Positions 6,289 through 62,598 of a stretch of 64,000 nt of DNA are shown here, piece after piece. Below the pieces are notes generated by a model, which saw only the letters and a program-made list of their open reading frames with translations, was not told where the DNA came from and made no database searches. The DNA is from an uncultured Gammaproteobacteria bacterium (GTDB lineage: Bacteria > Patescibacteriota > Microgenomatia > Levybacterales > GWA1-39-11). The position numbers and the translations under genes are program-made. Position 1 is the stretch's first letter. The number at the start of each line of letters is the position of its first letter. The stretch covers positions 17,549 through 81,548 of the forward strand of contig CAYOTA010000002.1 in NCBI GenBank assembly GCA_964406795.1. The letters run 5' to 3'.

Positions 6289-6369
6289 GCGGATGTGGTG
6301 AAATGGTATACACGCTTGGTTTAGGACCATGTGCCGAAAGGCGTGGAGGTTCAAGTCCTCTCATCCGCA
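6289..6369 (+). tRNA. tRNA-Leu (anticodon TAG), class II with long variable arm, no encoded CCA
   Basis: GCGGATGTGGTGAAATGGTATACACGCTTGGTTTAGGACCATGTGCCGAAAGGCGTGGAGGTTCAAGTCCTCTCATCCGCA. Acceptor GCGGATG/CATCCGC, anticodon loop TTTAGGA, variable stem GCC-GAAA-GGC, T-loop TTCAAGT. One U-U mismatch in the anticodon stem. Confidence 0.75.
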
Positions 6370-12398: not shown

Positions 12399-12481
12399 TG
12401 CCCGAGAGAGGACTCGAACCTCCACGTCTTTACAGACACAGCGTTCTGAACACTGCGTGTATACCATTTCACCACTCGGGC
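12399..12481 (-). tRNA. tRNA-Leu (anticodon CAG), class II
   Basis: Minus strand GCCCGAGTGGTGAAATGGTATACACGCAGTGTTCAGAACGCTGTGTCTGTAAAGACGTGGAGGTTCGAGTCCTCTCTCGGGCA. Anticodon loop TTCAGAA, long variable arm. Confidence 0.8.
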
Positions 12482-13128: not shown

Positions 13129-13199
13129 AGCGGGAGACGGGAATCGGACCCGCTACATCTTCCTTGGCAAGGAAGCATTCTACCGGTGAATTACTCCCG
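13125..13199 (-). tRNA. tRNA-Gly (anticodon GCC), CCA encoded
   Basis: GCGGGAGTAATTCACCGGTAGAATGCTTCCTTGCCAAGGAAGATGTAGCGGGTCCGATTCCCGTCTCCCGCTCCA. Confidence 0.85.
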
Positions 13200-13240
13200 C
13201 TTAAAAAACGAAGTTTTTTAAGCACCGCGTTTTCGCTCGC

Positions 13241-13624: not shown

Positions 13625-13697
13625 TGCCAAGACCAGGACTCGAACCCGGATAACTTGTTCTTCAGACAAGCGCCTTGACCATCTTGGCTATCTTGGC
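13625..13697 (-). tRNA. tRNA-Phe (anticodon GAA)
   Basis: GCCAAGATAGCCAAGATGGTCAAGGCGCTTGTCTGAAGAACAAGTTATCCGGGTTCGAGTCCTGGTCTTGGCA. Confidence 0.85.
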
Positions 13698-16647: not shown

Positions 16648-16720
16648 TGGGCGATGCAAGGGTCGAACTCGCGACATTCGCAGTGTAAATGCGACGCTCT
16701 ACCAACTGAGCTAATCGCCC
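16648..16720 (-). tRNA. tRNA-Val (anticodon TAC)
   Basis: GGGCGATTAGCTCAGTTGGTAGAGCGTCGCATTTACACTGCGAATGTCGCGAGTTCGACCCTTGCATCGCCCA. Confidence 0.85.
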
Positions 16721-23867: not shown

Positions 23868-24515
23868 ATGATTCTAATGAGAGATTTTAATAGAGGTGGA
23901 AATTCAGGAGGCAGAAGCTTTGACCGCGGTGGAAATCGTGGAGGAGGTTCCTTTGGTGGAGGAAGTCGAGGCGGATATAATGATCGTGGCGGAAGCAGAA
24001 GTGGAGGATTTGGAGGAGATCGCGAAATGTTCCAGGCTACCTGTGACAGTTGCGGAAAATCATGTGAACTTCCCTTTAAACCAAACGGTAGTAAGCCAGT
24101 TTACTGTTCTGACTGTTTTAAAAAACAGGATTCAGGTAGTGACAGACGCAGTGGTGGATTTGACCGTGGTGGAGACAGAAGATCTGACTCCAGACCATCC
24201 AGAGATTTTTCAGCTCCTAGGCCTTCAAATGGCCCTGACCTTTCAGGATTAAACGCTAAACTTGATAAAATTATAGAATTACTTTCTGCTAACTCTCCTA
24301 AATCGACCCCAAAACAAAAAAAAGAAGTTATTAAGGAAGTTTTGGCTGAAGAAGTTTTAGTAACACCTGACGAGAAGATTATGGCTTCAGAAATTGTACC
24401 GGAAGCTGTTGAAATAATGGAACAAGCAGAAGCTGCAAAGCCAAAAAGAAAATCTAAAAAAGCAGCTACACCTGAAACCACTTCAGAAGTACCCACACAA
24501 GAAGCTACAGAGTAA
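23868..24515 (+). CDS. RGG/Gly-Arg-rich protein with CxxC-N17-CxxC zinc ribbon and acidic/Lys-rich tail (putative nucleic-acid binding)
   Basis: RGG repeats (FDRGGNRGGGSFGGGSRGGYNDRGGSRSGGFGGDR). CDSCGKSCELPFKPNGSKPVYCSDCF. Confidence 0.6.
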   Translation: MILMRDFNRGGNSGGRSFDRGGNRGGGSFGGGSRGGYNDRGGSRSGGFGGDREMFQATCDSCGKSCELPFKPNGSKPVYCSDCFKKQDSGSDRRSGGFDRGGDRRSDSRPSRDFSAPRPSNGPDLSGLNAKLDKIIELLSANSPKSTPKQKKEVIKEVLAEEVLVTPDEKIMASEIVPEAVEIMEQAEAAKPKRKSKKAATPETTSEVPTQEATE

Positions 24516-25911: not shown

Positions 25912-26088
25912 TTAGAGTTTGAAAATGGCACGAAGTATGCTTCTATTATTTTCAGGACCTTTGTGATCAGGATGTGGGTCTAGTGCTCTTCTAAATCTCC
26001 CCGAAGACGTGAGGCTAACTCTATGAGGAACAAATGTTACTTTCTCCAAATGCTCACAATTCGTAGATTGCAATAATTCTTTTCCCAT
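25912..26088 (-). CDS. Small ORF (58 aa), uncharacterised; weak resemblance to HicA/YcfA-type small toxins, unproven
   Basis: MGKELLQSTNCEHLEKVTFVPHRVSLTSSGRFRRALDPHPDHKGPENNRSILRAIFKL. Not in the ORF track (<60 aa). Confidence 0.25.
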   Translation of the reverse strand: MGKELLQSTNCEHLEKVTFVPHRVSLTSSGRFRRALDPHPDHKGPENNRSILRAIFKL

Positions 26089-26096
26089 CTCTGCAA

Positions 26097-26552
26097 TTAT
26101 ACTCCTTGAAGTTGTTTTATGTCACTTATGATAGTAGCCGTATGAGTAACAGGATTTACGTTTTTGTAAGTCTTTACAATGATGCCTGTTGGATTTATGA
26201 GAAATGTATTACGCTCCACTCCCAGAAACTCTTTACCCCAGAATTTCTTGGGATTCCAGCTGTCATACGCCTCAATTACAGTGTGAGACTCATCGGATAG
26301 AATTGGAAAGTTAAGATTATGTTTCTCTCCAAATTTTTTGTGGGAAGTCACGCTATCTTTTGAGATACCCACTATTTCAACCCCTATGTTTTTGAATTCA
26401 GTGCTGGTGTCTCTAAATGCACAGGCTTCTATAGTGCAGCCGGGAGTGTTGTCTTTAGGGTAAAAATATAGAACAAGCCACTTTCCGGCATAGTCAGAAA
26501 GACTATGCATCTTTCCATTCTGATCAGGTAAATTAAAATCATGCGCTTTCAT
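26097..26552 (-). CDS. bcp: Peroxiredoxin, Bcp/PrxQ type
   Basis: FYPKDNTPGCTIEACAFRD (peroxidatic Cys motif PxxxTxxC). 151 aa. Confidence 0.8.
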   Translation of the reverse strand: MKAHDFNLPDQNGKMHSLSDYAGKWLVLYFYPKDNTPGCTIEACAFRDTSTEFKNIGVEIVGISKDSVTSHKKFGEKHNLNFPILSDESHTVIEAYDSWNPKKFWGKEFLGVERNTFLINPTGIIVKTYKNVNPVTHTATIISDIKQLQGV

Positions 26553-26602
26553 GCACTTAGTCTACCATGATTACCTATGGCATAATAGCCTAAAACAATC
26601 AT

Positions 26603-26634
26603 AATCGTATGTTCGTACGATCATGCGATTGTTG
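26603..26634 (+). repeat. Direct repeat copy 1 (ATCATAATCGTATGTTCGTACGATCATGCGAT)
   Basis: About 80% identical to 26929-26960 (ATCATGATCGTATCATCGTACGATCATACGAT). The two copies bracket the 26674-26928 ORF. Confidence 0.6.
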
Positions 26635-26673
26635 TTTGTATATAAGTACAAATGCAAAAAGTGTGAGTGTTGG

Positions 26674-26928
26674 TTATTTTATTTTAAAGTTTCTTTTGCA
26701 GATAAGGATGAACAGAATTATGAGCGTCCATAGTTCTAGTGTAAGCTTGAATCCATCCTGCTCAGACCCTTCACGGCTTCCATAATATGACATTCTCCAG
26801 AAAATAAGACCTATAAGGATAAATGCTGGAATGATAGCCCATTTGGAGATTTCATCATGTCCCCAAGTACTATCTTTTATAAATCTTTTTACGTCTTTGC
26901 TTTTAAAAAGCTTCATGTGTCTAATCAT
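26674..26928 (-). CDS. Small two-TM membrane protein (84 aa), uncharacterised, flanked by direct repeats
   Basis: WAIIPAFILIGLIFW and LWTLIILFILICK hydrophobic helices. Confidence 0.4.
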   Translation of the reverse strand: MIRHMKLFKSKDVKRFIKDSTWGHDEISKWAIIPAFILIGLIFWRMSYYGSREGSEQDGFKLTLELWTLIILFILICKRNFKIK

Positions 26929-26966
26929 ATCATGATCGTATCATCGTACGATCATACGATCATACG
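26929..26966 (+). repeat. Direct repeat copy 2 plus ACGATCAT tandem (CGTACGATCATACGATCATACGATCG)
   Basis: See copy 1. Also carries 2.5 tandem 8-mers. Confidence 0.6.
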
Positions 26967-26984
26967 ATCGAAATACAGATGATT

Positions 26985-27045
26985 TGTTATTTGGGATTGT
27001 ATGGGGAGATTGGGTGGAGATGGGGATTGGGGGGGGTGGAGGCTA
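26985..27045 (+). repeat. G-tract-rich segment (GGGATTGTATGGGGAGATTGGGTGGAGATGGGGATTGGGGGGGGTGGAGG)
   Basis: At least five G3+ runs within 50 nt in an otherwise AT-rich intergenic region. Potential G-quadruplex former. Confidence 0.5.
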
Positions 27046-27128
27046 AATCAAAAAATAAATTTTGATTTAAAAACACTTGAGGCTAAAAAAATAGCAATTG
27101 AGGCTGGAATGTAGTGGAAACAAAGTCT

Positions 27129-29933
27129 TTACCACTCAAACACATCAATTATATTTTGTATAGTGTTTTTTATTCTATCAATAACTCCTTGTCTTTGAAG
27201 GAATTGGGGTTGCTTTTCTTGGGGAATGAGGTCAAACACATCCTGATCTTTCGGTAATTTTTGAGAATATAAATATTCACCTATAAGTTTTTCTAAGTCT
27301 TCCATTGGAATCTTTTCGTCATCAGCAAGTTTTTTCAACGAGTTTGATCTCTGACTGTTCCAGAACTCATGAAATGCTTTATCAACCTGACTTGATCTTT
27401 CAACGTTTGGAAGATTTTCTTCAATAAACTTTTTGATTAGCTCCTTCTTTTTCCTTAGCTGAACGTCTCTGTCAAAGATTTTTAGAATGTCCTCTGTTCT
27501 TTTCTTACGAAGATCATCGGATTTAATATTCTTAAGCCCTGCAATAAGTAAAATTATGTAATCATAATCAATGATGTCGCGAATCGTCAATTCAAGCTCA
27601 AAATCAATCTGGTCAAGTATTGATTCAGGCCCCATTCCGTGAGTTTTTCTTTCTTCATAAATATCAAGATATTTGCTTTGATAGTCGTAGAATTCTTGCT
27701 CTGAAATGCCCAGCTCTTGGAATGAAAAATCAGCAAATGTTTCAAGGCTTGCTTTAATTCTAAGTAAGTCCCTAAATGTTTTTACAAATTTTGCTTTTTT
27801 TTCTTCGCCTTGCAGTTCACTAACTGAATTAACTGTAGGCGTTTGAGTTCTTAACTCATGAAGCTTGTTCTCAAACTCCTTTTTTTGCTCATCATATGGC
27901 TTTTTAAATACTACCTCTTTAGCGTTTTCGTCGCCAAATAGAGTAAGCGCAGTGTCTGTTGCTTTTTTAAGATTTTGGAATGAAACAATATTTCCGTGAG
28001 GTTTGTCTGAATTAAGTAGTCTGTTTGTTCTAGAGTATGCCTGAATTAATCCGTGATACCTCAAATTTTTATCAACATATAAAGTGTTAAGACGTGGACT
28101 ATCAAATCCAGTTAAAAACATGTTGACTACAAGTACGAGATCCACCTGTTTATCTTTAATTCTCTTTTGCAGGTCTCTGTAGTAGTCATAAAATCGGTCA
28201 GTTGAGAAATTAGTTGAGTACAATGTATTGTAATCTCTTATGCAATTTTCTAAGAAATCTCTAGAATGTTGATTTACAGCTGCACCTTCTACACCAAAAA
28301 CATCTACATCCAGCATGTCACTACTTTCATCTTCGTTTGCTTGATAGGTGAAAATTGTGGCAATATTTAAAGTTTCTGGTTTTTTAGATTTAAAAAGTGA
28401 ATAGTATTTTTTTAATACATCTACGCTGGTTACAGCAAATAATGCGTTAAACTTTCCGTTTTTTGTTTTTCTTTTCCAGTCAGCTAATATGTAATCAGTT
28501 ATTTTAGAAAGTCTGTCATCACTTTCCAGCACTTCACGTGTATCAATCCCTTCCACCATTGCATCTGCAAAAATATCGGCATCCAGAGTATCTGCATCTT
28601 TTTGTGTATAGCGTCCTACGTACTCTACTGCAAATCCAAGCACATTATTATCAGATATAGCATTTGTGATAATGTATTTATGCAAACACTTCTCAAAAAC
28701 ATCTACGGTGGTTACTCCTCCTACGTTATTATCTGCAAAGATGGGAGTACCAGTAAACCCAAAAAGTTGAGCTTTTTTAAAAAAGCCTTTAATCCTTGCA
28801 TGAGTTTGGCCAAACTGGCTTCTATGACATTCGTCAAATATTATAACCACTCTCTCATCTGCTAAATTTGTAAATTGTGAGGTGTATGAATCTCTACTGA
28901 TTGCAATATCAAGTTTTTGAATAGTTGTTACAATGAGTTTTGTTTTTGAGTCTTTTAACTGGTTTACTAAATTGTTTGTGTTACTTGTTCCGTCAACTGA
29001 ACCATCAGAAAATGAATTAAATTCTTTTGTTGTCTGAATATCCAAATCCTTTCTATCCACAACAAATAATACTTTTTTAATTTCTGGCATGCGTTTCAGA
29101 ATTTGACTTGTTTTAAAAGATGTTAACGTTTTTCCACTTCCTGTTGTGTGCCATATGTAGCCGTTTTTGGTTGACTCTTTGACCTTTTCTTCGATTGCAC
29201 GTGCGGCATAGTACTGATATGGGCGCATAACCATAGGAATTTTAGGTACTTCGGCAAGTACTATGTACTCTGCAATCATTTCAGACACACTGCATTTTTC
29301 CAGGAATACTTCAGCAAATTCTGACAATTTAGTTACCTTTTTATTATCTATATCAGTCCAGTAAAACGTTTGTTCAAATGACTGAGTTGGATTATTAGAA
29401 AAGTATTTTGTGTTAACACCGTTACTTATTACAAAAATTTGTATGTATTCAAAGAGTGTATTTGTGAAAGAATGTCTGTGATATCTTTGGATTTGATTAA
29501 ATGCTTCTTTCATTTCCATGCCTCGTCTTTTAAGTTCTATTTGTACCAAAGGAAGCCCATTAATAAGTAGGGTTACGTCATATCTGTTTTGGTAACTTCC
29601 GGTTTGGGTTAATTGGTGAGTGACCTGATATTCATTTTTACACCACTGATCCATGTTAAAAAACCTGATCCATATTTCAGTTTCATCATCACGTTTTAAC
29701 ACAAATCTATCTCTTAAAGTTTTTGCTTTTAAGAATCTGTCCCCACGGTTTAAATGGTTTAGGATTCTTTCAAATTCAGCTTCTGAAAAATTAGCCTCAT
29801 TAAATCTTTCTAGTTGAGATTTTAAATTTGAGATGAGTGCATTTGTGTCAGGTAGGACCACAGGAGTAAATCCCAACTTTTGAAGCTGGACCATTAACTC
29901 ATTTTCAAGTTGTAATTCAGATTGTGTATTCAT
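27129..29933 (-). CDS. hsdR: Type I restriction enzyme R subunit (HsdR)
   Basis: HTTGSGKTLTSF (helicase motif I), FDECHRSQFG (motif II DEAH-like). N-terminal nuclease region. 934 aa. Confidence 0.9.
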   Translation of the reverse strand: MNTQSELQLENELMVQLQKLGFTPVVLPDTNALISNLKSQLERFNEANFSEAEFERILNHLNRGDRFLKAKTLRDRFVLKRDDETEIWIRFFNMDQWCKNEYQVTHQLTQTGSYQNRYDVTLLINGLPLVQIELKRRGMEMKEAFNQIQRYHRHSFTNTLFEYIQIFVISNGVNTKYFSNNPTQSFEQTFYWTDIDNKKVTKLSEFAEVFLEKCSVSEMIAEYIVLAEVPKIPMVMRPYQYYAARAIEEKVKESTKNGYIWHTTGSGKTLTSFKTSQILKRMPEIKKVLFVVDRKDLDIQTTKEFNSFSDGSVDGTSNTNNLVNQLKDSKTKLIVTTIQKLDIAISRDSYTSQFTNLADERVVIIFDECHRSQFGQTHARIKGFFKKAQLFGFTGTPIFADNNVGGVTTVDVFEKCLHKYIITNAISDNNVLGFAVEYVGRYTQKDADTLDADIFADAMVEGIDTREVLESDDRLSKITDYILADWKRKTKNGKFNALFAVTSVDVLKKYYSLFKSKKPETLNIATIFTYQANEDESSDMLDVDVFGVEGAAVNQHSRDFLENCIRDYNTLYSTNFSTDRFYDYYRDLQKRIKDKQVDLVLVVNMFLTGFDSPRLNTLYVDKNLRYHGLIQAYSRTNRLLNSDKPHGNIVSFQNLKKATDTALTLFGDENAKEVVFKKPYDEQKKEFENKLHELRTQTPTVNSVSELQGEEKKAKFVKTFRDLLRIKASLETFADFSFQELGISEQEFYDYQSKYLDIYEERKTHGMGPESILDQIDFELELTIRDIIDYDYIILLIAGLKNIKSDDLRKKRTEDILKIFDRDVQLRKKKELIKKFIEENLPNVERSSQVDKAFHEFWNSQRSNSLKKLADDEKIPMEDLEKLIGEYLYSQKLPKDQDVFDLIPQEKQPQFLQRQGVIDRIKNTIQNIIDVFEW

Positions 29934-29936
29934 TTT

Positions 29937-30461
29937 TTATCCATCTAATATTACTTTCTTTAATGGTTTTACTGCAGTTAGTATAGCAGAGGTCAGTCCT
30001 AATATAGCCCTTTCGTGGGCTACAATTCCGCCTATTTTTAAAATAAATCCATCCCCTTTAAGACGTCTTAATTCATCGGTGTTTGAATGATCTTCATGAG
30101 CCCCTTCCTGATCCGCGAACACTTTTATTAATTCTTTGTTAGTAAGGCTAACAGGTGAGGGTACATTGCTAGCGAAAGCTAGTTCATCTAATAACTCATT
30201 CAGTGATAATATGCTTTTCTTTCCTATTATTGGTGGTATATTTCTGTGAATAATCATTTCCATTCCATAATATTTAGTTAGGTGCTGTAAGAGCGGTTTA
30301 TTGGTTCGAGTTTCAATTATAAGAGCCCTTAGGTTAGAAGCAATATCTTTAATTCTGCTGTGTTTCCCTTTATGATAGTCTTGCAGATAATCATCTAAGT
30401 TGATGATTCTATCCAGAAACGCTTGTTCTAGTTCTTTTTGCTCTCTTGGTATTCTGTTCAT
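29937..30461 (-). CDS. Uncharacterised protein (174 aa) translationally coupled between hsdS and hsdR
   Basis: ATGA start/stop overlap with hsdS (GTATGAACAG). Only a 3-nt gap to the hsdR start. No recognisable motif. Confidence 0.55.
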   Translation of the reverse strand: MNRIPREQKELEQAFLDRIINLDDYLQDYHKGKHSRIKDIASNLRALIIETRTNKPLLQHLTKYYGMEMIIHRNIPPIIGKKSILSLNELLDELAFASNVPSPVSLTNKELIKVFADQEGAHEDHSNTDELRRLKGDGFILKIGGIVAHERAILGLTSAILTAVKPLKKVILDG

Positions 30462-31726
30462 ACAAACATCTGCTGGAGGAGGCCCTTCTTCCATTCATCT
30501 GCTTTTTTAATTTGAGTTTTTTTTACTTCAATTTGCTGATCAATGAGACTCAAAAATTCAGCGATTTTTTCTTGTTCCAGCAAACAAGGTACTGTGATTT
30601 TCAGTTTTAAAAAATCTTTCTTACTCAAAACTCTATTTCTTCCTGCTCCTCCTGGAGAAATAACTCCAAGTAAATATTTCATTCGAGCTGTTGGATATAC
30701 GAACCTAAAATACTTAGGCGTATATTTTTCTTTGTTGAATATATATGTAGGGAATCGATGAGAAACTAACCCGTCACCATCATCACGCGTGGCTATTGCC
30801 AGCGCACCCTCCCAAGCAAAGGTTATATTGACTATAAAATCATTTTCTTTCACTACGTAAAGTTTGTCCATTTCTATTTTATTTGGATCTGAATTCAGCT
30901 TCTGAAACGTACCCCTAAAGTGGCTTCGGATTCCAATAGCTTTATATGCTTCTCGGGGTTTGACTATCTCTCTAAGTTCGGGAATTAAGATTTCCTCCAG
31001 CATTACCTCAGTCCACTCAGGAAAGTTTTTACCATTGTCATTTTTAAATCTAACTACCTGAGATAATATTTTTTGCGCTATGCCTTTTTTATATTTTTCC
31101 AAATTCTTTCTCTGTGCTGACAAATTCTCTATCCAATCATCAACAGATGATAAAAACAAGGCAATTTTCTGCTGTTCTGCAGGAGATGGGAGCCCAATAC
31201 TCAAGCTATTTAGGGATTCCTGATTAATGTTAGTGTTTGCACTCGTAGAACTAAGTGAGACTAGTTTTTTTCTAAATTTTCTATCTGAAAAACAATATTT
31301 TTTAAAATTCAAGTCAAGTTTCTGTTTTTCATCCCTAAATCGTATAAGGAACCCGCTATAGACTGTATTTTCTAAATCAGTTAATAACAAAGAAGTTTCA
31401 CCAACTCCTTCTTTTTTGACTGAAGATCTAATAAATAGGACATCTCCTTTCTTCAAATTGTACAGCTCTAGTTCCTTCTGGTTAGCGTTAACCAAACTTA
31501 ATTTAAGGTTTGATATTGTAGGCTTTCCAAACACATCCATCAAATTAACAAATGGGAATCCAAAACCAAAGTTTTCTTTAGATTTATTAATCCCGTTTTT
31601 GAAGCTTCCAATGTTCTCTAATTTTGTCTCTTTCCATTCGCCATAAAACTCTGGGAAGCGGAGAGTGGGCTTGCACGCCGTAGCTTTAGCGTAGGTGGGG
31701 ATTTTGTTTGTTGCTGTTTGGTTCAT
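30458..31726 (-). CDS. hsdS: Type I restriction-modification specificity subunit (HsdS), two target-recognition domains
   Basis: Typical HsdS architecture: TRD1, central conserved QQKIALFLSSVDDWIENL, TRD2, C-terminal conserved QEKIAEFLSLIDQQIE. Confidence 0.85.
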   Translation of the reverse strand: MNQTATNKIPTYAKATACKPTLRFPEFYGEWKETKLENIGSFKNGINKSKENFGFGFPFVNLMDVFGKPTISNLKLSLVNANQKELELYNLKKGDVLFIRSSVKKEGVGETSLLLTDLENTVYSGFLIRFRDEKQKLDLNFKKYCFSDRKFRKKLVSLSSTSANTNINQESLNSLSIGLPSPAEQQKIALFLSSVDDWIENLSAQRKNLEKYKKGIAQKILSQVVRFKNDNGKNFPEWTEVMLEEILIPELREIVKPREAYKAIGIRSHFRGTFQKLNSDPNKIEMDKLYVVKENDFIVNITFAWEGALAIATRDDGDGLVSHRFPTYIFNKEKYTPKYFRFVYPTARMKYLLGVISPGGAGRNRVLSKKDFLKLKITVPCLLEQEKIAEFLSLIDQQIEVKKTQIKKADEWKKGLLQQMFV

Positions 31727-31731
31727 AATAT

Positions 31732-32580
31732 TTACTTCTTATCTACACTTGATAGTAGTTTTTTTTGTTCTTCTTCCTCTAATAATAATGATTTGAATTG
31801 TCTTTCAGCAGAATTTACAAGTAGATTGATTCTCTGATTCTGATTCTTCCCTTCACTAATAAAATGGGCGTTCAAATTTTCTAAATTTGCCAGAATTACT
31901 AATTGTTGCACGGTGGCATAATCTCTTTGATTTCTACCACTTTTTGAAGATTTTTTATTTGACACTCTCCAGTCAGCAGCCGTTTGTCCAAATACAATCA
32001 GGTTTAAAATGTCAGCCTCGTCTGTATATACAAATGTTTGTTGAGACTTGGTTAGCTGAAGAGCGGGAAGGAGTATGTTTTTTATTGAGTCTGTGTGCAG
32101 TCTATAATTTACTTTAGATAAGTATCTATGGGAGTCCCACTTAATAAAATTCTGCTCCTTCTCTTTAAGCCGTTGGAACTCTGTAATTATTAACAACTTG
32201 AATCCTGGGCTAAGCCAAGTACCAAATTCAAAAGCAATATCATGATGAGCATATGTTCCTCCGTAACGTCCCCTTCTTGCAGTTATACCTTTGGCATTGG
32301 TTTTTTCAATCCATTCTATGATTGACGGATTGAAGTTGTTTGCGCCTGCATTATTTTTAAAGTACACGAATTCGTGTACTTTAAAATCAGAGTTATTAAT
32401 TTGCTCCCAAAAGCCCAGAAAATCTATTGTATTTTTAGTTCTTAGCCAACTATGGAGTGCTCTGTCCGATCCAGCACTTTTAGCCATGTCAGTTAAGCAA
32501 ATGTAGTCTTCTCCGTTAACTTTAGTAACGTTTATTGTGCTGTCATTTATATTCATTGACAAATTATTTAGTTTTGTCAT
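31732..32580 (-). CDS. KilA-N domain protein inserted between hsdM and hsdS
   Basis: N-terminal ...NVTKVNGEDYICLTDMAKSAG... (KilA-N/APSES-type DNA-binding domain pattern). C-terminal coiled-coil. Confidence 0.6.
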   Translation of the reverse strand: MTKLNNLSMNINDSTINVTKVNGEDYICLTDMAKSAGSDRALHSWLRTKNTIDFLGFWEQINNSDFKVHEFVYFKNNAGANNFNPSIIEWIEKTNAKGITARRGRYGGTYAHHDIAFEFGTWLSPGFKLLIITEFQRLKEKEQNFIKWDSHRYLSKVNYRLHTDSIKNILLPALQLTKSQQTFVYTDEADILNLIVFGQTAADWRVSNKKSSKSGRNQRDYATVQQLVILANLENLNAHFISEGKNQNQRINLLVNSAERQFKSLLLEEEEQKKLLSSVDKK

Positions 32581-32583
32581 AGT

Positions 32584-34161
32584 TTAGAACGGCTTTTCAA
32601 TTTTTAGCTCATCACAAAATTTTGTAATGTTTTGTTGTATATCTTTTTCTTCCATTTGAAGTTCCTTTAGTTTTTTAGCAACAGTATTTATGTCTATTGG
32701 CTCTTCATCTTCAAAAGTATCTACGTATCTTGGAATATTAAGATTGAATTCGTTTTCTTTTATCTCAGCAAGTTGAGCCTTGTGGGAATACTTCTCAATT
32801 TCATTTCTATTTCTATAGGTTTCAAAAATTTTTTGTATGTTTTCATCATTTAATCTATTTTGATTCTTTCCTTTTTCAAACTCTTTTGAAGCATCAATGA
32901 ATAGAACATTCTCATCATCTCTTCTACATTTTTTAAAAATGAGAACTGTTGCAGGAATGGAAGTTCCATAAAAAAGATTGGAAGGAAGGCCTATAACTGC
33001 GTCCAGGTAATTTTGTTTTTCTATAATGTATTTTCTTATGTGTCCTTCAGCTCCACCTCTGAATAACGCACCATGTGGTAGTACTATTGCCATGGTTCCG
33101 TTATCTGACAAGTGATGCAACATGTGTGTTACAAATGCATAATCTGCCGCACTTTTTGGAGCCAGTCTTCCATACTGCGAAAATCTTTCATCACTTACAA
33201 GTGCTGGATCATTTTCTCCTTTCCATTCTGCAGAAAATGGAGGATTTGCTATAACTACCTCAGCTTTTAAGTCAGGAAACATATCATCAGTTAATGTGTC
33301 TCCTTGCATTATTTTGAAATGATCAAAATGAACTCCATGTAAAATCATATTCATGCGTCCTAAGTTATAGGTTGTGGGGTTTAGTTCTTGCCCATAATAG
33401 TCGGTAATTTCTGCATAGTCTTTAATTCTTAAAAGAAGCGATCCAGATCCGCATGCAGGATCATAAACTGAGCGGATTTTTTTCTTATCTATTGTTACAA
33501 TTTGTGCCATGAGTCTAGAAACTTGAGAAGGTGTATAAAATTCTCCACCCTTTTTACCTGCACCTGCTGCAAATTCTCCTATAAGATATTCATAAGCGTC
33601 CCCTAAAAGATCACTTTTATTATCATCTAGTTTGAAATCAATACCCTCTAAGTGTGAAAGAACTTCGACAATAATTTCATTTTTCTTATTTTCTCCAGAC
33701 CCCAGTTTATTTGAGGTTAGGTCAACGTCATCAAATAATCCAGTAAAATCGTCTTCACTAGCTGTTCCACGTGACGTACTCTCGATATTAGTTAAAACCT
33801 TTTTTAAATCTTCAAGAATAAAATTTGACTCACCCGAAATACCACTTTTGCCTTTTTTGACCAAATATGAGAAGAGTTCAGTGGGTTTTAGGAAGTATCC
33901 TAATTCATTAACACAAGCAGTTTCTATGTGTTTTAAATATTCTTTTCCTTCTTTAGTCTTCTCTTTGATTTGTTCAAACGTGATGTTATCTTTGTGGAGA
34001 AGTTTACTATCTATGTAATTTGTAAGTTTTTCGGAAAGGTATTTATAAAAGATAAAGCCAAGGATGTAATTCTTATACTCGTCAGCATTCATTCTGCCAC
34101 GCAAGACATTTGCTACTGCCCAGAGTTGCTTTTCCATTATCCTTTTTTGCTCTTCTGACAT
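32584..34161 (-). CDS. hsdM: Type I restriction-modification DNA methyltransferase subunit (HsdM), N6-adenine
   Basis: VIANPPFS (motif IV NPPF/Y), DPACGSGSLL (motif I). HsdM N-terminal domain. Confidence 0.9.
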   Translation of the reverse strand: MSEEQKRIMEKQLWAVANVLRGRMNADEYKNYILGFIFYKYLSEKLTNYIDSKLLHKDNITFEQIKEKTKEGKEYLKHIETACVNELGYFLKPTELFSYLVKKGKSGISGESNFILEDLKKVLTNIESTSRGTASEDDFTGLFDDVDLTSNKLGSGENKKNEIIVEVLSHLEGIDFKLDDNKSDLLGDAYEYLIGEFAAGAGKKGGEFYTPSQVSRLMAQIVTIDKKKIRSVYDPACGSGSLLLRIKDYAEITDYYGQELNPTTYNLGRMNMILHGVHFDHFKIMQGDTLTDDMFPDLKAEVVIANPPFSAEWKGENDPALVSDERFSQYGRLAPKSAADYAFVTHMLHHLSDNGTMAIVLPHGALFRGGAEGHIRKYIIEKQNYLDAVIGLPSNLFYGTSIPATVLIFKKCRRDDENVLFIDASKEFEKGKNQNRLNDENIQKIFETYRNRNEIEKYSHKAQLAEIKENEFNLNIPRYVDTFEDEEPIDINTVAKKLKELQMEEKDIQQNITKFCDELKIEKPF

Positions 34162-34224: not shown

Positions 34225-34599
34225 TTACTTCTTATCATTCAGCTTTTTCAAAAAATCATCTACATCTTTCACAAAAACTTCTCTGGGAATTGACCCATCA
34301 CCAGGTCCTACAGCACCACTTTCCTCCAGCTGTTCTAATAACCTGGCAGCACGGTTAAATCCAACTTGCAATCTTCTTTGTAGCATGGAAGAAGATGCCC
34401 TATCATATTGAGCAACTAGTTTTACCGCATCATCAAATAACTCATCCCTTCCTTCAAATCCTAAATGATTATGTTTTTTAATATAGCTAGAAGGAAGAGG
34501 GAAGGCTGAACAAAAGTCCTCTAACCTCTGGAGTCTAATCTTGGCGCTTACAAGTTCCGTCTTTATTTCTTCAAGTTCTTTTTTTATGTCCTCATCCAT
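34225..34599 (-). CDS. Stand-alone FtsK-gamma winged-helix domain protein with N-terminal coiled coil
   Basis: DDAVKLVAQYDRASSSMLQRRLQVGFNRAARLLEQLEESGAVGPGDGSIPREVFV matches the FtsK gamma signature (SxLQRRLRIGYNRAARLIE.ME..GIVGP..GSKPREVL). Confidence 0.7.
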   Translation of the reverse strand: MDEDIKKELEEIKTELVSAKIRLQRLEDFCSAFPLPSSYIKKHNHLGFEGRDELFDDAVKLVAQYDRASSSMLQRRLQVGFNRAARLLEQLEESGAVGPGDGSIPREVFVKDVDDFLKKLNDKK

Positions 34600-34652: not shown

Positions 34653-35033
34653 TTATCTTCTTCTGGGGATGTGGGAGTATCTAATACTTAACATTTTTCC
34701 ATCCTTCCATAGAATCCTTCTTTCAAGCGGTTTGTCTCCACTTGTAAGCGTCGCTAATAACTCTTCTGATTCTATAGTTTCAGGGTCTATTGTATTTCGC
34801 TCAAAAAGCACCGTTCCAGGTTTTAGTTTTACCCTGTGAACAGTGGTCGTAATATTATCCTCTGAACATCTTGCAGTTAATACAGATCTGGGATGAACAG
34901 CAGTCAAATCCTCTCGCATGATGTCCATATCCCCAGGGCGTGCCCGTCCTAATTCAGACCACCGCTTTGTATGAGGACTAAACATTTCTACTTTAGATAC
35001 CATAGGTATGTGAGTATGTATTATATCCACCAA
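34653..35033 (-). CDS. Small uncharacterised protein, member 1 of a tandem paralog array
   Basis: Shares the ...TIDPETIESEELL... core and ...SIRY C-terminal end with 35901-36314. Confidence 0.5.
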   Translation of the reverse strand: MVDIIHTHIPMVSKVEMFSPHTKRWSELGRARPGDMDIMREDLTAVHPRSVLTARCSEDNITTTVHRVKLKPGTVLFERNTIDPETIESEELLATLTSGDKPLERRILWKDGKMLSIRYSHIPRRR

Positions 35034-35072
35034 ATATGAAAGTAGAGTAATAAAGTGCTGACGCCAGAATAA

Positions 35073-35474
35073 TTACGGTTGAGGCATGCGGGATAAAAGA
35101 TCCACAGGACTCAATATGCATTTATCATTTACTGGTTGAGAAGACTGAATAATTGTTGCAAAGTGTAAACTGTCAGGTGTAACTTCTAATGCGCGTAATA
35201 TGTACATAGACTTGTCAGTACCTCTAAATGCAGGAACAATTTTTAAATTTCTTTCTACATCAACTCCGATAATTCCAAATCTTAACCATACCTGTCCTAA
35301 TTCACCCATATTATTACGTATGGCATTCAAAGTTCTCTTAAAACCTTCCACATTCGTTTCTTTATCTTTGTTTTTAGAATCGGTCATTCTCAACCGTTCA
35401 ATTCCGCAATTTTTCAAAATTTGCAATGCTGCGTTTTCCGGGGATATGTATCTGGGTTCTGTTTCTTGAGTCAT
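35073..35474 (-). CDS. Small uncharacterised protein, member 2 (most diverged) of the tandem array
   Basis: IGVDVERNLKIVPA segment aligns loosely with the array motif. Confidence 0.45.
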   Translation of the reverse strand: MTQETEPRYISPENAALQILKNCGIERLRMTDSKNKDKETNVEGFKRTLNAIRNNMGELGQVWLRFGIIGVDVERNLKIVPAFRGTDKSMYILRALEVTPDSLHFATIIQSSQPVNDKCILSPVDLLSRMPQP

Positions 35475-35530
35475 AAGCAGGCATTATATCATTTCCAAGG
35501 CAAAAGTGATAACTAGTCTATGTAAATGTT

Positions 35531-35872
35531 TTACTCTTGGGTTATGTTGTAGACCTTGGTAGGTCCGTAGGGTTCCGACTGTATAAGAATTGGGTGCTCA
35601 TCTCCTTTTTTAATATCCATCAGATGTTTTACTAAATGTAATTTTTCTATTATCAGTATTTCTGGTCTTTTTGGGTCCACAATTGTATTCACCCCAGGGG
35701 TAACAGCCACAGTTGCCTCACTCTCATCTGAACTACACTCTATTATGATAATATCTTTCCATCCACGGTTCCATGATTCATACCACACCCTGTCTCTTGG
35801 CAGTAAATAATTATCTCTTTTCAGAGTTACTGGATTGCTACCCGTGTCTAAGTGTTCTATTTTTGTTCCCAT
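35531..35872 (-). CDS. Small uncharacterised protein, member 3 of the tandem paralog array
   Basis: RDRVWYESWNRGWKDIIIIECSSDESEATVAV...TIVDPKRPEILII aligns with DTRVIFDFKKKEDDAIIVAHDGNSDLVHVA...FIDPQKIRPVAIL of member 4. Confidence 0.5.
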   Translation of the reverse strand: MGTKIEHLDTGSNPVTLKRDNYLLPRDRVWYESWNRGWKDIIIIECSSDESEATVAVTPGVNTIVDPKRPEILIIEKLHLVKHLMDIKKGDEHPILIQSEPYGPTKVYNITQE

Positions 35873-35900
35873 AGTAATAACGCTTTAAAATCTTTTATTA

Positions 35901-36314
35901 TTAGTGATTTATACGGATAGGAAGAATTGGGCCTTTGCGGTCAAGCCGTGCGTATTGAATGCAAGATTCGCGTCCCTTAATAACGCTAATGGGAAGCGTT
36001 CCGTGTTCGTCAGAAACAGATGAAAATCCCATATTATTTCCATGCAGTATTGCGACCGGTCTTATTTTTTGAGGATCAATAAATCTCACGTCACATCTTC
36101 CAGTATCAGGATCGAAATGTATGCTTGCAATATTATTAGCTTCTGTTCTTGCAACGTGCACTAGATCACTATTTCCGTCATGAGCTACAATAATTGCATC
36201 ATCTTCCTTTTTTTTAAAATCAAAAATAACACGCGTGTCATTTGGTTCAATTTCCATAGACTCTCCCCACTTGTGAAAAGTTTTTGAAGCTGACCCAATT
36301 TCAATTCTTGGCAT
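35901..36314 (-). CDS. Small uncharacterised protein, member 4 of the tandem paralog array
   Basis: See members 1 and 3. Confidence 0.5.
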   Translation of the reverse strand: MPRIEIGSASKTFHKWGESMEIEPNDTRVIFDFKKKEDDAIIVAHDGNSDLVHVARTEANNIASIHFDPDTGRCDVRFIDPQKIRPVAILHGNNMGFSSVSDEHGTLPISVIKGRESCIQYARLDRKGPILPIRINH

Positions 36315-56161: not shown

Positions 56162-56232
56162 CTGGGACGCCTGGATTCGAACCAGAATAAACAGCTCCAA
56201 AGGCTGTTGTCCTACCATTAGACGACATCCCA
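56162..56232 (-). tRNA. tRNA-Gln (anticodon TTG)
   Basis: TGGGATGTCGTCTAATGGTAGGACAACAGCCTTTGGAGCTGTTTATTCTGGTTCGAATCCAGGCGTCCCAG. U1-A72 pair and G73, as in bacterial tRNA-Gln. Anticodon loop CTTTGGA. Confidence 0.8.
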
Positions 56233-62517: not shown

Positions 62518-62598
62518 TGCCGAAGGCGGGACTCGGACCCGCATCCCTTACGAGACACGCTCTTAAGGCGTGCGTGTATACCATTCCACCACTTCGGC
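62518..62598 (-). tRNA. tRNA-Leu (anticodon TAA), class II
   Basis: GCCGAAGTGGTGGAATGGTATACACGCACGCCTTAAGAGCGTGTCTCGTAAGGGATGCGGGTCCGAGTCCCGCCTTCGGCA. Confidence 0.8.

Follow-up and report, generated by a model that had tools for sequence, protein, structure and literature searches.

A member of an unannotated, mostly helical protein family in the hsdS-hsdR slot of a Type I restriction-modification locus: a candidate accessory defence factor

We analysed a 64,000-nucleotide stretch of uncultured bacterial DNA (hereafter the window; contig CAYOTA010000002.1 of assembly GCA_964406795.1, positions 17,549 to 81,548 of the forward strand), which holds a Type I restriction-modification (R-M) operon with an open reading frame (ORF) lacking any family annotation, here called ORF174, embedded between the specificity gene hsdS and the restriction gene hsdR. 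The five large ORFs of this operon span positions 27129-34161, are co-directional on the minus strand, and are separated by gaps of 3-5 nucleotides (nt) or overlap by 4 nt. They are listed here with the two junctions of ORF174, from the first gene of the block onwards and with protein lengths in amino acids (aa).

32584-34161, minus strand: hsdM, first gene of the block, methyltransferase subunit, 525 aa (Pfam N6_Mtase, E 4e-112, and HsdM_N)
31732-32580, minus strand: KilA-N domain protein gene between hsdM and hsdS, 282 aa (Pfam KilA-N, E 3.1e-21)
30458-31726, minus strand: hsdS, specificity subunit, 422 aa (Pfam Methylase_S in two stretches, E 1e-22)
30458-30461, minus strand: ATGA junction joining the ORF174 start and the hsdS stop, read from the sequence
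29937-30461, minus strand: ORF174, 174 codons plus TAA (MNRIPREQ...VILDG), without family annotation
29934-29936, minus strand: 3-nt spacer AAA between the ORF174 TAA and the hsdR ATG
27129-29933, minus strand: hsdR, restriction subunit, 934 aa (Pfam HSDR_N, SWI2_SNF2, T1R_D3-like and EcoR124_C, the last at E 1.4e-56)

Since HsdR carries an EcoR124_C domain, the operon was assigned to a Type IC-like class. The initial annotation of this DNA had reported a start/stop overlap with hsdS and a 3-nt spacer to hsdR, and both coordinates and sequence agree with it. The ATG of ORF174 (30461-30459) and the TGA of hsdS (30460-30458) share a 4-nt gene overlap, within a minus-strand context (...CAG ATG TTT GTA TGA ACA GAA...) that contains the GTATGAACAG given in that annotation, and the TAA of ORF174 (29939-29937) is followed by the hsdR ATG at 29933-29931 (minus strand ...GAT GGA TAA AAA ATG). 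From this arrangement we infer that ORF174 and hsdS are translationally coupled and, because of the overlap with the hsdS stop and the 3-nt distance to the hsdR start, that production of the ORF174 protein probably accompanies that of HsdS and HsdR. Matches to internal promoters and terminators in the operon were not above shuffled expectation. The public gene call (P0001) is longer, at 185 aa, with a start 33 nt further upstream (30462-30494) and within hsdS; its 11 extra residues come from a different frame of the stretch that encodes the conserved HsdS C-terminus, and they show no conservation at the protein level. Because homologue conservation starts at MNR, the same ATGA junction occurs in loci L001/L020, and the orthologue in locus L023 starts at MTR behind a different upstream gene, we prefer the 174-aa reading, which is likely the actual product. 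The R-M block (26001-34000) has a G+C content of 0.34-0.36, compared with 0.37-0.40 around it, which is consistent with horizontally acquired DNA.

Sequence conservation establishes ORF174 as a genuine protein-coding gene and effectively excludes a non-gene reading. A word-based search returned a single relative (P0002, 54% identity). An exhaustive HMMER scan of 1.84 billion representatives recovered 65 clusters at E<=1e-3, nearly all of them 160-200 aa long, and two profile searches added a further 57 and 81 matches, all labelled "hypothetical" and without Pfam domains besides C-terminal TPR repeats in a few of these profile-search relatives. Nearly all relatives originate from metagenome-assembled genomes (MAGs) and metagenomes, sources that RefSeq-based screens would pass over. 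In MAGs of Candidatus Woesebacteria and related metagenome contigs, the gene order is hsdM-hsdS-ORF176-hsdR with 4-nt overlaps on both sides, while a second lineage (L023) encodes hsdM-AlbA_2/HATPase_c_4-hsdS-220 aa-ORF180-hsdR; a homologue thus lies directly upstream of hsdR in all three orthologous operons. Pairwise identity across these operons is 75-77% for HsdM and 73-77% for HsdR, and just 45-54% for the ORF174 orthologues. Nonsynonymous divergence (dN) is 0.42-0.54 for ORF174 vs 0.16-0.19 for hsdR and hsdM, whereas synonymous divergence (dS) is saturated, so that dN/dS, about 0.16 for ORF174 in the sole computable pair, is mostly uninformative. By these sequence measures, ORF174 is under purifying selection, yet its rate of change is about 2.5 times that of hsdR and hsdM. 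The initial annotation's description of a translationally coupled ORF inside hsdS-hsdR of a Type I locus is borne out by the retention of the gene in three orthologous operons and by the 65-cluster family, and its reservation that this might be a mis-called ORF lacking conservation falls away.

Across a 95-sequence alignment of the family, conservation is concentrated in two short motifs, given here with residue numbers of the window protein.

30318-30347, minus strand: Motif 1, residues 39-48, DIASNLRALI (family EIAxKLRxLV), with the R45 codon at 30327-30329
30087-30110, minus strand: Motif 2, residues 118-125, QEGAHEDH (family QxGxAHEDW), with the H122 codon at 30096-30098

Residues R45, L47, and H122 are each present in 95/95 sequences, and D124 (94), G120 (93), L57 (93), L58 (92), L44 (90), and L22 (90) are near-invariant, followed by Q118 (87), E123 (85), A41 (84), and N54 (82). 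The invariance of R45 and H122 and the near-invariance of D124, Q118, and E123 suggest that this R/H/D(E,Q) pattern belongs to a catalytic or binding site and that the protein is more than a pure scaffold. Literature matches to the motif string were all due to chance. The initial annotation had instead pointed to a loose Rx7H stretch, RTNKPLLQH; the string is present at residues 52-60, yet it is not a family feature, as R52 is found in 39/95 sequences and H60 in 7/95.

AlphaFold2 models were obtained for the window protein (pLDDT 87.2, pTM 0.83) and for the consensus-like member P0068 (pLDDT 90.8, pTM 0.87), and both have the same predicted architecture. A long N-terminal helical hairpin is followed by a short helix, an extended PP-containing segment, and a beta-hairpin, after which come a helix that stops at the AHED motif, a loop plus helix of lower confidence, and a long C-terminal helix. 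Motif 2 is modelled at the lower-confidence loop that follows helix 108-120 in the window protein, where residues 121-140 have a pLDDT of 58-69. The family is one of predicted small cytoplasmic, mostly helical proteins of about 180 aa, and no transmembrane segment or signal peptide was seen in ORF174 when read by eye. Searches of ORF174 against Pfam, NCBIfam, and PADLOC gave no match (the sole Pfam line, Nop at E 0.1, is noise), and 52 family members scanned against Pfam at E<=0.1 had no informative match. No PDB chain was matched by single sequence or by profile (0 at E<=10 for the profile), and Foldseek searches of the PDB with the two models gave nothing at E<=0.001, the best value being E 0.41 with the second model.

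Several known types of R-M-associated protein were considered and rejected. A DNA-mimic anti-restriction protein of the Ocr or ArdA type, with a strongly acidic surface and an isoelectric point (pI) of about 4, is ruled out by the pI of the ORF174 protein (8.76; family median 6.4, 5th-95th percentile 5.0-9.4). An R-M controller (C) protein or other helix-turn-helix (HTH) regulator is discounted by the lack of an HTH in the Pfam and NCBIfam scans and by modelled helices of 25 and 15 residues that do not form one. Membership of PrrC/RloC by domains is likewise rejected: the initial annotation had judged the protein far smaller than PrrC and without an ATPase signature, and at 174 aa, with no AAA/ABC match in Pfam and no PADLOC match, this holds. 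The suggestion that homologues might be fused to HsdR found no support, as neither HsdR nor HsdS fusions occur among the 65 representatives or the 81 profile matches, and the longest relatives are TPR fusions or carry extra sequence without a Pfam match.

To place the family in its wider genomic context, we surveyed 47 further loci with up to two flanking ORFs per side (119 ORFs in total), using Pfam, PADLOC, and an all-versus-all comparison. Most of these neighbours were unannotated or housekeeping-like, and the all-versus-all comparison of the 119 ORFs revealed no recurrent partner protein. A few loci did adjoin R-M genes. A 29%-identical member in a Gammaproteobacteria MAG (L016) precedes an hsdM-hsdS-AlbA_2/HATPase_c_4/HTH-hsdR operon by 110 nt, which is an independent Type I association. 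In L008 and L009, the member begins 3 nt after a methylase+Mrr_cat+NA-iREase1 fusion, and in L027 a 39%-identical member is two genes away from an N6_N4 methylase. Elsewhere, a Shedu SduA gene lay near the member, along with two small ORFs of membrane or coiled-coil type, or the member stood beside an SF1 helicase (AAA_11/12), an AlbA_2 protein, a PIN toxin-antitoxin pair, a resolvase, or a Lit-type peptidase with an SNase. With the three operons of candidate-phyla-radiation (CPR) type counted as one event, about 4 of about 20 informative independent contexts adjoin R-M genes. R-M linkage of the family is therefore recurrent and non-obligatory: on this uncontrolled count, adjacency looks higher than chance, and it is far from universal. 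The initial annotation had considered that homologues might never be R-M linked, and the three CPR-type operons, L016, and the methylase-Mrr fusion of L008 speak to the contrary.

Two further patterns were observed among these loci. SLFN_AlbA_2 proteins, with or without HATPase_c_4 and HTH domains, accompany the family gene in three of them (L016 12359-13732, L023 2907-4319, and L055 1534-2682); two of the three cases are inside Type I operons, which may merely reflect how common such proteins are in Type I loci. Small neighbours predicted to be membrane or coiled-coil proteins appear in two unrelated contexts, namely a 220-aa protein with an N-terminal hydrophobic helix just upstream of the family gene in L023 (5635-6297), and a 62-aa ORF plus a 154-aa ORF with two hydrophobic segments just downstream of it in L006 (1984-2642). 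They are possible partner effectors, with no counterpart in the window.

The family also has phage-linked relatives, and uncharacterised phage proteins were the sole positive links found in the comparison with known families. Residues 1-62 of ORF174 match positions 4-65 of the 218-position profile phrog_7805 (E 4.5e-9), an uncharacterised phage protein family matched by 15/52 family members. Two models of uncharacterised viral proteins in BFVD match the fold (TM 0.56-0.58, probability 1.0), and one of these is gp33 of the temperate Gordonia phage Bowser (KU998235; whole-chain TM 0.56/0.53). The gp33 gene belongs to gp31-35, a set of accessory genes transcribed leftward that separates the tail genes from the integrases (KU998235; PMC4982277). 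The family hidden Markov model picks gp33 from among the six-frame ORFs of Bowser (E 3e-4), aligning LRvL as well as IHYDDELD to AHEDWxLDE. Both gp33 and phrog_7805 resemble ORF174 in an N-terminal helix hairpin with an LRxL motif; their sequence match is mostly confined to about 60 residues, and hhalign to gp33 reached a probability of only 27%. We treat gp33 as a probable remote homologue, itself an uncharacterised protein. The gp33 frame (L063, 27334-27987, minus strand) is open upstream of the annotated start, and since the extra residues TVPRDPSTYGPA align with the N-terminal segment of the family, that start may have been placed too far downstream. Searches of phage and plasmid collections by tblastn with ORF174 and P0074 gave no match, a scan of IMG/VR yielded no relative, and tblastn of a large L008 protein against phages did not show a phage origin for the L008 contig.

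Comparison of the hsdS-hsdR junction with plasmid-borne HsdR relatives of about 50% identity indicates that this position varies between systems. A Sulfitobacter plasmid carries a plain hsdM-hsdS-hsdR operon with an empty junction, an Arcobacter plasmid carries hsdM-hsdS-like-DUF2971-Fic-hsdR, and an Ilyobacter plasmid has a rearranged gene order. These varied arrangements lead us to regard the junction as a variable cargo position in this R-M family, and ORF174 as dispensable to the R-M system and distinct from its core subunits. The window operon holds a second embedded gene, the KilA-N gene at 31732-32580, which corresponds almost over its full length to the PADLOC phage-defence candidate PDC-S22 (E 2.8e-105). 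This gene is absent from the Woesebacteria orthologous operon, and L023 has the AlbA_2/HATPase_c_4 gene in that slot.

Genes nested in this way have precedents. The order of the E. coli EcoprrI locus is prrA(hsdM)-prrB(hsdS)-prrC-prrD(hsdR), which places prrC in the hsdS-hsdR slot, and PrrC, an anticodon nuclease, is a protein of about 400 aa with an N-terminal ABC-type NTPase domain and a C-terminal tRNase domain. This locus is of Type IC, and the embedded PrrC is activated when the T4 protein Stp inhibits the enzyme (PMC12707154). Like prrC in EcoprrI, ORF174 is a single same-strand accessory gene within a Type IC-family locus, and it has a PrrC-type position (hsdS-ORF-hsdR, 4-nt overlap, 3-nt spacer, EcoR124_C in HsdR). 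Unlike PrrC, it is 174 aa long and has no P-loop and no PADLOC or Pfam match. "Guilt-by-embedding" uncovered defences in Hma systems that were validated, and it put forward further candidates nested in Type I R-M, BREX, and DISARM; in that work, nested genes were rich in new defences and more than half are still unexplained (Payne et al. 2024, bioRxiv 10.1101/2024.01.29.577857). The KilA-N neighbour of ORF174, as PDC-S22, is among the candidates of that paper. The resulting PDC families resemble ORF174 in being same-strand, uncharacterised genes nested in Type I R-M operons, and ORF174 has the corresponding attributes (same strand, nested, unannotated and hence not recognised as a mobility, housekeeping, or known defence gene, slot kept in orthologous operons) while matching none of the PDC models. 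A third precedent, tgvAB, is nested in the Type I R-M cluster of VPI-2 in Vibrio cholerae, where it forms an independent defence module complementing restriction, as proposed here for ORF174 (PMC11411939). TgvAB is, however, a two-protein GmrSD-like Type IV restriction system, whereas ORF174 is one small protein without DUF262/DUF1524 similarity.

The reading we favour, to which we assign slightly less than an even chance, is that ORF174 is cargo in the variable hsdS-hsdR slot and contributes to defence in an accessory role, with a centre built from R, H, E, and D residues. Its part in defence is inferred, and the same holds for enzymatic activity of any kind and for contacts with HsdR or HsdM2S. 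By analogy with PrrC in EcoprrI, ORF174 would be co-expressed with the R-M system and would ride on and complement restriction, either as a PrrC-like latent effector or as an independent piggy-back module. The polar set R45, N54, Q118, H122, E123, and D124 could form a catalytic or ligand-binding centre that is partly located on a flexible loop, as suggested by the alignment and the models, and the C-terminal TPR repeats of some members, which would resemble an effector-plus-sensor architecture, were counted for a defence reading. Cargo at the prrC position of Type I operons is a known kind of gene; the family to which ORF174 belongs and its predicted fold are new.

Several observations weigh against this assignment. 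The three CPR-type operons are orthologous and count as one evolutionary event; in the 47 further loci, DNA methylases were found in just 3 (119 flanking ORFs), and most of the distant members are solo genes without a recurrent partner. By these sequence contexts, the family as a whole is neither obligately R-M linked nor clearly island-bound. No defence model of Pfam, NCBIfam, or PADLOC matches ORF174, with zero families at E<=1 among the 5027 PADLOC v2 models, and neither sequence nor model searches provide a solved-structure analogue from which chemistry might be read. We saw no toxin-type partner, be it an antitoxin or an RNA, that could hold a toxic effector in check. The initial annotation's idea of an abortive-infection module derives from gene position.

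The same position is open to a different interpretation, in which ORF174 modulates the R-M system itself by binding HsdR or HsdM2S and tuning assembly, translocation, or self-restriction (restriction alleviation or establishment control). Its location directly upstream of hsdR in all three operons, with a stop codon that overlaps the hsdR start or lies at most 3 nt from it, would suit such a role, as would divergence about 2.5-fold faster than that of HsdR and HsdM, which interface proteins can show; a general R-M helper could also explain why relatives adjoin three different kinds of methylase or restriction genes. We nevertheless consider a modulator unlikely in view of related HsdR systems that are plain M-S-R operons or hold other cargo in the slot, of the lack of a nearby R-M gene for most family members, of the lack of an HTH or other regulator domain in the Pfam scans, and of an invariant R/H/D set more like a catalytic or ligand site. 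The phage-linked relatives raise another explanation, that ORF174 is a selfish or phage-derived hitchhiker (a moron, an addiction module, or an anti-defence gene) that occupies a permissive slot independently of R-M. The phrog_7805 match over the N-terminal 62 residues of ORF174, the matches of 15/52 members to that profile, the two viral proteins as best fold matches, the prophage accessory block around gp33, the resolvases beside some relatives, and the varied cargo of the slot itself all fit this idea. Against it, ORF174 is intact, in the same position, and tightly spaced or overlapping with its neighbours across operons that are 23-27% diverged in HsdR; the tblastn searches and the IMG/VR scan were negative, and hhalign to gp33 gave a low probability. 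We regard a hitchhiker as rather improbable.

Small helical proteins with conserved arginine and histidine, of the HEPN class, are commonly attached to R-M systems, and a divergent HEPN-type RNase (DUF4145-like or AbiV-like) was considered as a further alternative. Like the HEPN modules found on R-M systems (DUF4145, AbiV), ORF174 is small and helical, has an invariant arginine and histidine, and occurs with several kinds of R-M gene. AbiV (9bj7) also recurred among the weak Foldseek matches of the first model (E 1.3-7.6, TM 0.31-0.33), and the catalytic motif of AbiV is likewise on a flexible segment (bioRxiv 10.1101/2024.05.05.592566). However, ORF174 was not filed under HEPN because the invariant histidine, H122, is preceded at positions -4 to -6 by Q118, E/Q117, and A116, never by R, and R45 is 77 residues away. 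The AbiV match had a probability of at most 0.11 and vanished with the better second model, the R52-x7-H60 stretch is not conserved, and no HEPN, DUF4145, Abi, or PrrC model matched ORF174 in Pfam (E<=1), PADLOC, or NCBIfam, nor did any HEPN, DUF4145, or Abi model of Pfam or PADLOC match the 52 members. The initial annotation's failure to see a HEPN signature is consistent with these profile searches and with the lack of a significant HEPN fold match by Foldseek, and we consider a HEPN-type RNase very improbable. The remaining weight falls to something else.

A more elaborate version of the accessory defence reading, which we put forward as speculation and think improbable as a whole, is that the family consists of enzymes of a new fold, with R45/Q118/H122/E123/D124 as an active site carried in part by a mobile loop, and that ORF174 serves as a ~20-kDa functional analogue of PrrC, a minimal abortive-infection effector coupled to R-M. 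In CPR bacteria, it would be kept latent via the Type I complex and freed when phage anti-restriction proteins disable restriction, and the solo, TPR-fused, and prophage versions of the family would respond to other triggers.

Outside the operon, a scan of the whole window with Rfam at gathering threshold identified eight tRNA genes and nothing else; these are listed below with other ORFs of the window, of which the first two were described by eye.

2064-2137: tRNA gene (Rfam)
6289-6369: tRNA gene (Rfam)
12399-12481: tRNA gene (Rfam)
13129-13200: tRNA gene (Rfam)
13625-13697: tRNA gene (Rfam)
16648-16720: tRNA gene (Rfam)
56162-56232: tRNA gene (Rfam)
62518-62598: tRNA gene (Rfam)
23868-24515, plus strand: 215-aa ORF with an N-terminal RGG/GGS-rich low-complexity region, a CxxC...CxxC zinc-ribbon-like motif, and a Lys/Glu-rich tail
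34225-34599, minus strand: 124-aa ORF just upstream of hsdM, whose C-terminus resembles a stand-alone FtsK-gamma winged-helix domain
34653-36314, minus strand: four co-directional ORFs of 113-137 aa between the R-M block and the 861-aa protein, with no obvious identity
36363-38948: 861-aa protein rich in Pro/Thr linkers

Time and again, genes nested in R-M operons have proved to be second-line defences against phage, as with PrrC, TgvAB, and the Hma-embedded defences. ORF174 differs from these precedents in belonging to a family without annotation, known-domain relatives, or a solved analogue, and with a confidently predicted fold and strictly conserved R/H/D residues. Among the many embedded genes that still lack an explanation, it is a well-defined, testable candidate from CPR-type genomes, whose defence repertoire is largely missed by RefSeq-based screens. 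If inert, it would caution against taking guilt-by-embedding as proof. If active, ORF174 would extend the R-M-coupled defences by a new chemistry, that of a small effector or sensor, and its operon would provide a compact five-gene case, with two embedded cargo genes, for the co-expression of restriction and back-up systems.
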